64,000 bases of DNA from a virus. The stretch covers positions 1 to 64,000 of IMG/VR virus record IMGVR_UViG_3300020160_001428; one strand, written 5' to 3'. Within the stretch, counting starts at the first letter, position 1, and every line of letters starts with the position of its first letter. A model generated the notes under the pieces. That model was not told the origin of the DNA and ran no database searches. It was given only the letters and a program-made list of their open reading frames with translations. This document shows, piece by piece, positions 60,190-62,907 of the stretch. A program made the translations under genes and the position numbers.

Positions 60190-60600
60190 TTATCTCCTTA
60201 AATAGTCTTGTATAACGGCGTTGACTGCATTATCATCATTATAATCAGTTAACATTTGAAGTTGATTTATTACAGAAGAATATTCATTTTTATTCTTCTC
60301 AATTTCTTTAATATTATCTTTTAATGTAAGATATTTTTCAAGATTGTTAATTAAATTCTCATCGCCTGTTTCAATAATTTTAATATAACACTCTTCTTTG
60401 TTACTATCAGTAATGATAATTCCTTTACTGATAAATTCATTGTTTAATAACATAAAAGAAACAAAGTCAACTAATGTAAACGATAATAAATTATCTCCCA
60501 TAATACCGCGTACTTTGGTTTTGACTGCTTTCGCGGCTTTACCTGCATAGGTACTAGCATCAATTCCTTCTACTTCTTCATAATTAGTGATTTCTTTCAT
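60190..60600 (-). CDS. Hypothetical protein
   Basis: 136 aa ORF overlapping the upstream gene. Confidence 0.55.
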   Translation of the reverse strand: MKEITNYEEVEGIDASTYAGKAAKAVKTKVRGIMGDNLLSFTLVDFVSFMLLNNEFISKGIIITDSNKEECYIKIIETGDENLINNLEKYLTLKDNIKEIEKNKNEYSSVINQLQMLTDYNDDNAVNAVIQDYLRR

Positions 60601-60850
60601 TTTTTAACCTTTCAATTTCGTCAGATAATTCTTGTACTGCTTTGATCAATGGAAAAATTAACTGATGCGGATTAGCTACAATAAAGTATCCGTCTCGATC
60701 TTTTTCTAAAATAGTGTATTTTTCTATTGGCCAAATTTCATTTATATTCTGTGCCATACAGCTCATAGTTTTTCTTACTGTATCACCTTTAGTGTTGTCA
60801 GTATATATATGCTCTGCAGGTCTTAGCTGTTTTATTTTCTCTAAACTCAT
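60584..60850 (-). CDS. Stand-alone peptidase S74/intramolecular chaperone-like fragment
   Basis: SLEKIKQLRP...MAQNINEIWP...LIFPLIKAVQELSDEIERLK; TAATG overlap with the upstream stop. Confidence 0.7.
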   Translation of the reverse strand: MSLEKIKQLRPAEHIYTDNTKGDTVRKTMSCMAQNINEIWPIEKYTILEKDRDGYFIVANPHQLIFPLIKAVQELSDEIERLKNERNH

Positions 60851-61494
60851 TACATATACTCAATTTCAGTTTTAACTTGTTCATCGCTATAGTTGCAATT
60901 ACAGGTACATGAGTAATTGCAGTTACAGGTGCAGTAGTTGCAGTTACATGTGCAATAGTTGCAGTTACAGGTGCAGGCGATCCTAGAGTCATTAATTTGA
61001 TTTACTAAGGAATTTATATGAACAGCTCTAATCTTTGATCCAACTAATGCGGCAAATGATGTTGCATTGCTAACTGCGGGCACCTGTGGATAGGTTATAG
61101 TTTCCGGTTGTGGGACTGGACCATATACTGGTATCTGGTTGCCAGTCGGGTTTCCGTAAGGATCAAGTTCTGGAGTATAGCCAACTACTACTTGCCCGTT
61201 AGGACTATTGATATTCTGGTTAGCTCCATTTTGTGCTGTTGTTGCCGCTGGTCCTGCAACGCTTACAGCAGTAATAATAGTGTCTAGGCGGGCCGCTGAA
61301 ACTGTTCCCGAGTAATAGCCGGCAGGTATAACGATATTAGATTGGCCTCTTCGAACTCTTTCATTGATTGCAGCCTGAAAAATGCCAGCCATGGCTGAGC
61401 CACTAATAGTAGTGCTAGTTCCAACGTAGCCGCCGATGTACCCTAGAGCATTTGATGCGTTGGTTCCGTAAACGTTTGCAACTAAACTTGCCAT
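60850..61494 (-). CDS. Cys-repeat protein 3, (CTCNCNY)x4 plus SD..K stub
   Basis: Ends ...CTCNCNYSDEQVKTEIEYM. Confidence 0.8.
   Translation of the reverse strand: MASLVANVYGTNASNALGYIGGYVGTSTTISGSAMAGIFQAAINERVRRGQSNIVIPAGYYSGTVSAARLDTIITAVSVAGPAATTAQNGANQNINSPNGQVVVGYTPELDPYGNPTGNQIPVYGPVPQPETITYPQVPAVSNATSFAALVGSKIRAVHINSLVNQINDSRIACTCNCNYCTCNCNYCTCNCNYSCTCNCNYSDEQVKTEIEYM
60889..60975 (-). repeat. 21-bp coding tandem repeat (CTCNCNY x4)
   Basis: Four units of roughly TGC ACC TGT AAC TGC AAC TAC, with one extra codon before the last unit. Confidence 0.9.
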
Positions 61495-61500
61495 TTATAA

Positions 61501-62334
61501 CTACTCCACCTCAAAATTAATTGGTAATTTTGAGTAGTTAACAAAATAGTATCCGTCTAGGTCTTTACCTAGAGCACATTCGTATTTGGTGCCTTGTAGT
61601 TCTTGAGCCATTACTCCACGATAGCGAGTCGATTTATCTTTGATATAGTTCCAAGAATAAACATTTAAATTATTTTCAACTTTAATAAATTTGATATTTT
61701 CTTTTAATCTTATATCACTACCATAATTACAATTACAGGTACATGCATAATTGCAGTTACAGGTGCAGTAGTTGCAATTACAGGTGCAGTAGTTGCAATT
61801 ACAGGTGCATACAGCGCCGGCAGAATTAATAGCACTAATTAGTGTATTAATATCTACAGAACTTATCCGTTGGTCTTTACTGAACGATGTTCCAACTGAC
61901 GGCGCCGGTGATTGTGGATAGGTTATTACTTCTGGAGTAGGTACTGCGGCGTATGTTGGGGTTGAACCAACTACATTTCCGTAACCGTCAAGGATCGGAG
62001 TTGAACCTGTTTGTACTACTCCGTTAGAACTATTGATATTCTGATTAGCTCCGTTATATGCTTGACTGGCCGCTGGGCCGGCCTGCTGAACTGTTGTAAT
62101 AATCTCTTGAACCCTAGCCCCTAATATTTTTCCACTAAAATAACTTGCCGGAAGTTGAATTGCTGAGCCGCCGCGGCGACTTCTTTCTGCAATGGCTTTA
62201 TTTGCTATATCAACTAATTTGTTTTCTCGCATTACGTCAGTAGATAACACGCCGGCCAGGTTATGAGTTACGGCATTAGTGGCATTAGTTCCGTATATAC
62301 TTTTAGTCAGTCCCGAAAAAGTTGGTAATGCCAT
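61501..62334 (-). CDS. Cys-repeat protein 2 with complete S74-type chaperone domain
   Basis: (CTCNCNY)x4 then GSDIRLKENI...YSWNY...GVMAQEL...GYYFVNYSKL. Confidence 0.85.
   Translation of the reverse strand: MALPTFSGLTKSIYGTNATNAVTHNLAGVLSTDVMRENKLVDIANKAIAERSRRGGSAIQLPASYFSGKILGARVQEIITTVQQAGPAASQAYNGANQNINSSNGVVQTGSTPILDGYGNVVGSTPTYAAVPTPEVITYPQSPAPSVGTSFSKDQRISSVDINTLISAINSAGAVCTCNCNYCTCNCNYCTCNCNYACTCNCNYGSDIRLKENIKFIKVENNLNVYSWNYIKDKSTRYRGVMAQELQGTKYECALGKDLDGYYFVNYSKLPINFEVE
61723..61809 (-). repeat. 21-bp coding tandem repeat (CTCNCNY x4)
   Basis: Same unit as at 60889-60975. Confidence 0.9.
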
Positions 62335-62907
62335 TTACATGTACTCCACTTGACTTTTAAGTTGTTCATCGCTATAGTTGCAGTTACAGGTACATGAGTA
62401 ATTGCAGTTACAGGTGCAGTAGTTGCAATTACAGGTGCAGTAGTTGCAGTTACAGGTACATACAGCACCAGCAGTATTAATTTCTGTAATTAGTGCATTG
62501 ACAATAGCACTAGTTATTCTTTGGCCGGCTATAAAGTTTCCTGAGCCGCTAGGAACTGCTACTTGACCGTAAGTAGTTATTGCTGGAGGATTGCCACTAT
62601 TAGCGCCACCTCCATAATTGGTATTGTATGCTTGACTAGTTGCGGGTCCTGCAATTTCTACATTAGTTTTAATTTCTTGAATTTTGCTTGCAAATAATCT
62701 ACCAGTATAATAATTAGAAGGAATAGCAATTGCCGAACCACCGCGACGTGTTCTTTCTGAAATAGCTTTTTGTGCTATATTGTAAAATATTCCGCCAGAC
62801 ATCTTATTTGTGTTATTGACTTGTGTAAGTCCATGAGATACTGAATCGCTGGCGTCAGTACCGTAGATGTCTTTTACTAATCCCGATGTTATATTTGGTA
62901 ACGCCAT
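62335..62907 (-). CDS. Cys-repeat protein 1, (CTCNCNY)x4 plus SD..K stub
   Basis: Ends ...CTCNCNYSDEQLKSQVEYM; SD GGAG upstream. Confidence 0.8.
   Translation of the reverse strand: MALPNITSGLVKDIYGTDASDSVSHGLTQVNNTNKMSGGIFYNIAQKAISERTRRGGSAIAIPSNYYTGRLFASKIQEIKTNVEIAGPATSQAYNTNYGGGANSGNPPAITTYGQVAVPSGSGNFIAGQRITSAIVNALITEINTAGAVCTCNCNYCTCNCNYCTCNCNYSCTCNCNYSDEQLKSQVEYM
62374..62460 (-). repeat. 21-bp coding tandem repeat (CTCNCNY x4)
   Basis: Same unit as at 60889-60975. Confidence 0.9.

Follow-up and report, generated by a model that had tools for sequence, protein, structure and literature searches.

A putative split Peptidase_S74 chaperone, with its Ser-Lys segment on the client proteins, in an uncultured freshwater phage

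Introduction

Peptidase_S74 domains are the textbook intramolecular, single-use chaperones of phage fibres and of MYRF. Here we describe a locus in which such a domain appears to be divided between two genes: at positions 60584..62907 of a 64,000-nucleotide stretch of viral DNA (the window, by which we mean the whole stretch analysed), cysteine-rich client proteins end in a 12-residue stub bearing the Ser-Lys dyad, and the other ~88 residues, here called the remainder, are encoded on their own. This stretch covers the initial 64 kb of the 72.4-kb IMG/VR virus record IMGVR_UViG_3300020160_001428 (CheckV completeness 21%), and its carrier is an uncultured freshwater phage.

Like the Peptidase_S74 domains of K1F endosialidase, T5 pb1, the GA-1 appendage and the MYRF ICA domain, the unit in the window shares the PF13884 profile family, starts with an S-x4-K dyad (essential in MYRF, where mutating either the Ser or the Lys blocks cleavage), is predicted to continue into hairpins and a C-terminal helix, and is placed directly after the C-terminal module of its client. 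In contrast to those systems there are two polypeptides here, with the dyad-bearing 12 residues on the client and the ~88 residues as a separate gene product; one remainder stands per up to four clients, and the client is a Cys-heptad cassette rather than a beta-helical fibre tip. The arrangement in cis on one polypeptide that characterises Peptidase_S74 was absent from two of the three window paralogs and from every paralog of L002, a relative in IMG/VR. Because chaperone and client are separate open reading frames (ORFs), we file the locus as a split variant and not as a canonical S74 member.

Stand-alone chaperones resembling the intramolecular chaperone (IMC-like) are already published, and the new part here is the split with a stub on the client. 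Alteromonas phages V22 (gp27) and A5 (gp9) encode intermolecular IMC-like tail-fibre chaperones of this stand-alone type, each, like the remainder, from a separate small gene downstream of the client (PMC10579305). In the available part of that source they are predicted to form a homotrimer, with a helical core and S74-IMC-like hairpins, and a heterohexamer with the client, for which a role as a structural cap is proposed; they contact the client via a strand of the fibre head domain, unlike the stub described here, and the same part mentions neither a Ser-Lys client stub nor cleavage, a comparison made by description and not by sequence (PMC10579305). Our literature search, which did not extend to the papers on endosialidase in cis and trans, found no description of a split S74 that leaves a catalytic stub on its client.

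The clients themselves can be compared with two described systems. Like the PapB/freyrasin ranthipeptides and the CrpC/CrpA protein ranthionine, as far as the available part of PMC13692751 describes them, they set a Cys-repeat core beside radical S-adenosylmethionine (SAM) enzymes. Unlike in those systems, the substrate here would be a phage protein of 190-277 amino acids (aa) whose core abuts a chaperone/protease unit, and all radical SAM matches fell far below the family cut-offs. The same helix and C[TL]C[DN]CNY heptads, in about seven copies, occur in gp140 (CPT_0180; phrog_26958) of Campylobacter phage CP220, which has 11 radical SAM genes. Its 21-bp intragenic repeat was noted in 2010, with no function proposed in the available part of that report (Timms 2010, PMC2853527). 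Unlike the window clients, gp140 has no S74 domain, stub or remainder past the cassette, and continues for ~200 further Cys-rich residues.

L018 3375..4979: CP220 gp140, 535-aa hypothetical protein

Layout of the locus

Four consecutive ORFs, three paralogs and one of 88 aa, occupied the minus strand at 60584..62907.

62335..62907, minus strand: client paralog 1, 190 aa; cassette at 62374..62460; 12-aa S74 stub SDEQLKSQVEYM at 62338..62373, then stop
61501..62334, minus strand: client paralog 2, 277 aa; cassette at 61723..61809, then Gly and a complete short cis S74 domain at 61504..61719
60850..61494, minus strand: client paralog 3, 214 aa; cassette at 60889..60975; 12-aa stub SDEQVKTEIEYM at 60853..60888, then stop
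60584..60850, minus strand: putative stand-alone S74 remainder, 88 aa; modelled as two beta-hairpins and a C-terminal helix (residues 61-87)

Each of the three paralogs (190, 277 and 214 aa) has a variable N-terminal part, then a helix, then a shared cassette of the form (CTCNCNY)x3-x-CTCNCNY (CTCNCNYCTCNCNYCTCNCNYSCTCNCNY in the 190-aa paralog), in which 12 of 29 residues are Cys; in paralog 1 a match to PHROG family phrog_26958 spans helix and cassette. The outer two paralogs go on to SDEQ[LV]K..[VI]EYM-stop. The 88-aa remainder is without a Ser-Lys segment, and the S-x4-K dyad sits on the client stubs instead. Its ATG begins at the last base of the paralog 3 stop (TAATG; junction TATATGTAATGAGT), and the stop of paralog 1 directly abuts the start of paralog 2 (TAA ATG).

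An earlier note on this DNA had described a split S74 chaperone at this locus, and its description was confirmed apart from the length of the stub and the scope of the overlap. The outer paralogs do end shortly after the cassette, after 12 residues rather than the 13 it gave, and the TAATG overlap into the next ORF holds for paralog 3 but not for paralog 1. It was right that the outer stubs keep the Ser and Lys positions (S-x4-K) and that the middle paralog carries a complete chaperone: the 72-aa S74 domain of paralog 2 matched PF13884 at E 1.9e-7 with 31.7 bits, over profile positions 1-50 of 58, the Pfam gathering cut-off being 22 bits.

In the relative L008 (3514..4356), the fused paralog ends ...PINFEVEYM, with the same EVEYM-stop-ATG junction as a stub gene. 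At 61489..61506 of the window the Tyr codon reads TAG, and paralog 2 ends ...EVE, then TTA TAA ATG, which looks like the mark left where a gene of the stub type took up a cis-S74 module by recombination.

Likeness of the 88-aa protein to the rest of an S74 domain

On its own the window copy of the 88-aa protein matched PF13884 with 16.8 bits, over profile positions 16-54 of 58, the stretch lying beyond the Ser-Lys segment. Among 22 aligned family members 20 matched PF13884 at E <= 0.1 (best E 4e-6), and one relative bears a precomputed match, which agrees with the earlier claim that this ORF holds what follows SDxRLK in S74 domains. In PHROG, remainder residues 2-85 fell on positions 344-429 of 449 of the tail-fibre family phrog_1980, and 30 of 30 matches in the ESM atlas were PF13884 clusters; in the three shown, clusters of 54-210 members, the representatives are 85-99 aa long. 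An AlphaFold2 model (pLDDT 74.9) showed two hairpins and a 27-residue C-terminal helix. Its best Foldseek match was the MyRF ICA domain 7dc3 (prob 0.97, E 0.058), and a VIA fold search against 48,161 chains placed the K1F endosialidase chaperone 3gw6_A at rank 1 (Z 4.2, rmsd 4.5, 86 residues aligned), with the S74 structures 7dc3_A, 4uw8_A and 3gud_B also among the best 50 rows. From these profile and fold matches we conclude that the 88-aa protein corresponds to an S74 domain minus its first segment.

The remainder model aligned to T5 pb1 from residue 1278, 14 residues past Ser1264, and to MyRF from residue 602, 15 residues past S587. In pb1, residues 1265-1276 form a loop that winds round the other chains ahead of the first hairpin, and the length of the stub matches this loop. 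We also compared the two pieces with a local S74 profile of 67 canonical fused domains; since its members had been collected with the profile of the family itself, we rely on where the matches fall and on their gain over shuffled stubs, and not on the absolute score. Alone, the 88-aa protein scored 76.1 bits over positions 15-96 of 114, whereas joined to either of the two window stubs, a test that the earlier note had put forward, it gave one continuous match from position 1 (84.8 and 84.6 bits). Twenty joins with shuffled stubs reached at most 81.3 bits, and the true stub-remainder join beat all 20 of its shuffled counterparts in 7 of 7 pairs. By these alignments the predicted split point is exact.

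Conservation of the split among close relatives

A protein search with the 88-aa remainder returned 27 stand-alone homologues (57-94 aa, 67-97% identical) on contigs of up to 346 kb; 26 of them were 83-94 aa long with query coverage of at least 94%, and the remaining one was a 57-aa partial (coverage 64%). No longer, fused relative was present among 38 candidates, which is weak evidence. Of 13 metagenome loci, 12 showed a run of one to four paralogs with stubs and then one remainder, the 13th locus having only 252 nt upstream; in L002, too, the remainder is preceded by stub paralogs, every one of which stops after 12 residues. The 11 distinct junction sequences, from independent contigs, all kept TAATGAG, with flanking codons that varied synonymously, and the paralog 3 stop is followed in frame by TGA (TAA TGA). 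Logan contigs of four runs, all from one study and two of them possibly the source, spanned position 60850 without insertion or deletion. Together with the junction variants they show that the split stems neither from chance nor from faulty assembly, and bear out the assertion that it is no sequencing error.

Across 20 aligned paralogs with bodies 36-76% identical, the cassette and the stub residues S, D, K, E and Y were invariant. Thirty distinct stub DNAs encoded 24 peptides, and Ser1, Asp2, Lys6 and Tyr11 were invariant in 30/30, the Ser being written with six codons of both codon families. The stub pattern can be given as S-D-x-x-hydrophobic-K-x-x-[IV]-x-Y-hydrophobic; stub genes away from a remainder show the identical ending, and both stub and remainder were under purifying selection.

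Other lineages and architectures

A cassette scan of viral contigs returned 33 loci in three architectures. In the fused architecture the cassette is followed by a 77-81-aa cis S74 domain, as in paralog 2 of the window (L054/55, L057, L059/60, L063, L065 and L068). In the split architecture the cassette leads into a 12-residue stub, and a remainder of 91-103 aa lies ~11-26 nt downstream by coordinate subtraction (L047, L061, L064 and L069), or an 89-aa remainder lies 5 kb from the stub gene with other genes between (L056/L072). Five further lineages besides that of the window keep the split, as the earlier note had suggested checking. The six remainders of known context are 25-51% identical to each other, and their stubs keep one pattern. 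The third architecture, a cassette without any S74, includes the Campylobacter phages. It also includes L048 (record G005, 100% complete), whose cassette gene ends exactly in ...CTCNCNY-stop, without a stub and with a remainder nowhere in the record; as encoded, this client is the natural equivalent of the predicted cleavage product. Cassette relatives at L049..L052 carry very long heptad runs of the C[DIT]C[DQ]CN[HY] type, with more than 150 repeat residues.

In a profile search, 70 of the best 150 of 187 matches were at most 135 aa long, and 13 of the 70 short S74 representatives were at least 50% identical to a remainder of known context. No clean split was found beyond the cassette family in scans with P0031, P0043 and P0076. 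The viral-contig scan with P0031, the nearest outgroup, gave no match, and that with P0043 gave 19 loci, nearly all of them ordinary fused S74. The genome-contig scan with P0076 gave 77 loci, of which 61 were fused with S[DEN]xxxK upstream, 14 were partial matches in which the motif was absent within 40 residues, and two were short frames (one contig-start cut and one frameshifted fused domain). Two further loci bear on broken S74 domains. One, L032 2593..3135, lies on a viral contig of 137 kb: its ORF terminates in ...SDQRLKTNIHQLSNDNII-stop and the next frame continues S74 for only 45 residues, so that the domain lies in several pieces. The other, L148 2397..2920, comes from a metagenome-assembled genome of Ignavibacteriaceae; here one frame encodes the S74 start SDARDKKNITDL and another, overlapping frame the rest, probably a frameshift and not a clean split.

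Predicted docking of stub and remainder

A complex of three copies of client residues 160-214 with three remainders was modelled with an ipSAE of 0.70 (runs 0.70, 0.62 and 0.73), whereas none of three controls scored above 0.00. The runs agreed in at least 80% of contacts, with a partner pLDDT of at least 82. In the calibration of the ipSAE pass mark, 116 of 157 solved complexes attained it, as did 2 of 215 mismatched pairs; this calibration used single-chain pairs and not 3+3 assemblies. The modelled interface sets client residues 200-214 against the remainder strand 10-18 and residues 30-34 and 55-59. This modelling too had been proposed in the earlier note, and on its result the 88-aa protein most likely docks onto the 12-residue tag. 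Trans binding of the stub by the remainder is well supported in silico, better than cleavage is, and to the extent of binding the models also support the idea that one stand-alone half serves two stub-bearing clients in trans. All of the computational tests suggested in the earlier note favoured its reading.

The fold of the whole 214-aa client was modelled with a pLDDT of 61.6, and with values below 50 in cassette and stub. A BFVD search with it gave no match at E <= 0.001, and an atlas search with client residues 1-172 returned only unnamed viral clusters, with scores below 0.9.

Genomic neighbourhood

The genes around the locus included the following.

60190..60600, minus strand: 136-aa ORF, phrog_25260; 17-nt overlap with the 88-aa ORF
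62920..63318, minus strand: acidic ORF of 132 aa, with the radical SAM gene on one side and the clients on the other; conserved in L002
63315..64000, minus strand: radical SAM enzyme, 290 aa, extending to base 64187 of the record; PF04055
55837..56505: GT2 glycosyltransferase
48012..49292: Trp halogenase
49223..49939: transketolase-like fragment

An island rich in radical SAM genes takes in 48012..57485 and 63315..64000 of the window, and L019 315..3709. Its radical SAM genes lie at 50511, 53280, 54019, 54915, 56496 and 63315 of the window and pass Pfam PF04055, and two SPASM-type genes (374 and 368 aa) lie beyond the window end. The best NCBIfam match of the gene at 63315 was the PapB ranthipeptide maturase, the L002 copy reaching E 6.9e-25 and 88 bits against a cut-off of 340. 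The 132-aa acidic ORF had no family match in searches of Pfam, NCBIfam or PHROG. The 136-aa ORF always came next after the S74 unit, at fused and split loci alike, with homologues likewise placed in L054-L068, and in L072 its module is found at the C terminus of a protein of 304 aa. At 58332..60187 there is a tandem pair of paralogous ORFs (350 and 265 aa), each with the N-terminal sequence ML[VI]ILSG; neither matched Pfam or NCBIfam, and in L072 a 266-aa gene resembling them precedes the remainder. No RNA holder was listed for the window stretch.

Proposed mechanism and alternatives

On balance we think it probable that the remainder trimerises, captures three stubs and registers the cassettes, and that the Ser-Lys dyad of the stub then removes the tag. 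An S74 intramolecular chaperone would here be divided between two genes, with the client stub as its first 12 residues, among them the scissile and nucleophilic Ser and the Lys that acts as general base. A separate protein would supply the ~88 residues that follow, folded as two hairpins and a C-terminal helix that trimerises, and in the window lineage its translation would be coupled to that of the last client via TAATG. Strand complementation between a remainder trimer and three stubs would rebuild a complete S74 module, and this would bring the cassettes into register. The dyad would then cut between the last Tyr of the cassette and the stub Ser, leaving a client that ends ...CNCNY. A single remainder would serve every stub-bearing paralog, two in the window and up to four in relatives. 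Computation shows the homology, the place of the split, the conservation and co-occurrence of the two parts, and a docking model of high confidence; binding in the cell, nucleation of the trimer, cleavage and turnover are steps that we infer, cleavage because the dyad is conserved, because it is essential in MYRF, and because the L048 lineage encodes the trimmed end.

Several results weigh against this interpretation. The 16.8 bits of the window copy lie under the Pfam gathering score, and the fold Z-scores of the remainder, at most 4.2, are low and no better than those of unrelated helical proteins. When PDB sequences were searched with the family profile, the four rows obtained, all at E >= 0.58, contained no S74 entry, and an hhalign comparison of the family with the cis S74 of paralog 2 next to it gave one weak stretch only, at a probability of 6%. 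The pass of the complex model may reflect memory of solved S74 trimers, and hence likeness rather than binding. Two loci, L040 and L044, have a stub for which no remainder was found, both being fragments (21% and 65% complete), and fused and split forms occur in the same kind of gene cluster, with no explained advantage of splitting. Catalysis in pb1, moreover, is helped by two residues of the fibre domain upstream, an Arg and an Asp, and since no equivalent of these helpers was identified in the Cys cassette, cleavage competence is unproven.

The missing helpers would fit a remainder that is only a docking chaperone or cap, one that binds the stub in trans and aids trimerisation or caps the end of the fibre, with the tag left in place and the remainder either dissociating or staying on as a structural cap. 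Stand-alone IMC-like chaperones are published without cleavage in the available part of their description (PMC10579305), and the docking model is silent on catalysis. Yet Ser1 and Lys6, the pair whose mutation blocks cleavage in MYRF, are invariant in 30/30 distinct stub DNAs with synonymous codon turnover, and the client of the L048 lineage terminates at the predicted product ...CTCNCNY; we regard docking without cleavage as unlikely. The radical SAM genes suggest another role for the stub, as mainly a follower-type recognition tag for radical SAM maturation, with the 88-aa protein presenting the cassette and the S74 likeness being mere ancestry. The clients do lie amid radical SAM genes, with the PapB-like gene two genes upstream, no leader-binding (RRE) domain was among the radical SAM matches listed, and thioether cross-linking at the protein level by a SPASM enzyme has been published, according to the available part of PMC13692751. 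Against this, clients with a fused cis S74 occur in the same clusters, so that the S74 unit itself appears needed, the stub fits the S74 profile position by position, and no evidence ties the remainder to the maturase. We consider this role improbable.

It is more improbable still, to the point that we give it hardly any weight, that frameshifting or readthrough joins the two ORFs during expression, or that the split reflects an error of sequencing or the decay of a pseudogene. The one-base overlap would permit a -1 shift in the window lineage, and support for the junction comes from contigs and not from raw reads. But a TGA follows the stop in frame, there is no slippery heptamer at the junction, non-adjacent stub genes end alike, and other lineages have spacers of ~11-26 nt, or of 5 kb with intervening genes; because spacing varies in this way among lineages, frameshifting and readthrough are excluded as a general mechanism. 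An assembly artefact is opposed by the 11 junction variants and by the contigs of four runs, which keep the split without insertions or deletions, and a pseudogene by purifying selection on both halves. On the in-frame TGA, the varied spacers, the conserved junction and the purifying selection, the frameshift, readthrough and pseudogene readings were rejected.

Significance

Within the split-chaperone interpretation, a bolder and only tentative proposal, which we hold to be possible but doubtful, is that the 88-aa protein is a free, reusable trans S74 chaperone-protease subunit for a portable 12-residue C-terminal tag that is then cut. If this were true, tagged clients of any kind would be trimerised, and the identical cassettes and stubs of several paralogs could allow mixed trimers. 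Until the remainder arrives, the Cys cassette would stay unfolded and open to cross-linking by radical SAM enzymes, and many small stand-alone ORFs labelled 'chaperone of endosialidase' in databases would be such subunits.

The arrangement is retained across several distant phage lineages. A naturally split S74, if true, would mean that a free subunit and a 12-residue tag suffice to rebuild the fold, and would settle directly whether this chaperone is able to act in trans and to turn over; it would also offer a compact tag-and-partner pair for protein trimerisation and tag removal. It would account for those small ORFs, a class of their own, to which automatic annotation gives the S74 label though they have no client, and it would add a regulatory step to the Cys-heptad/radical SAM cassettes of aquatic and Campylobacter phages.

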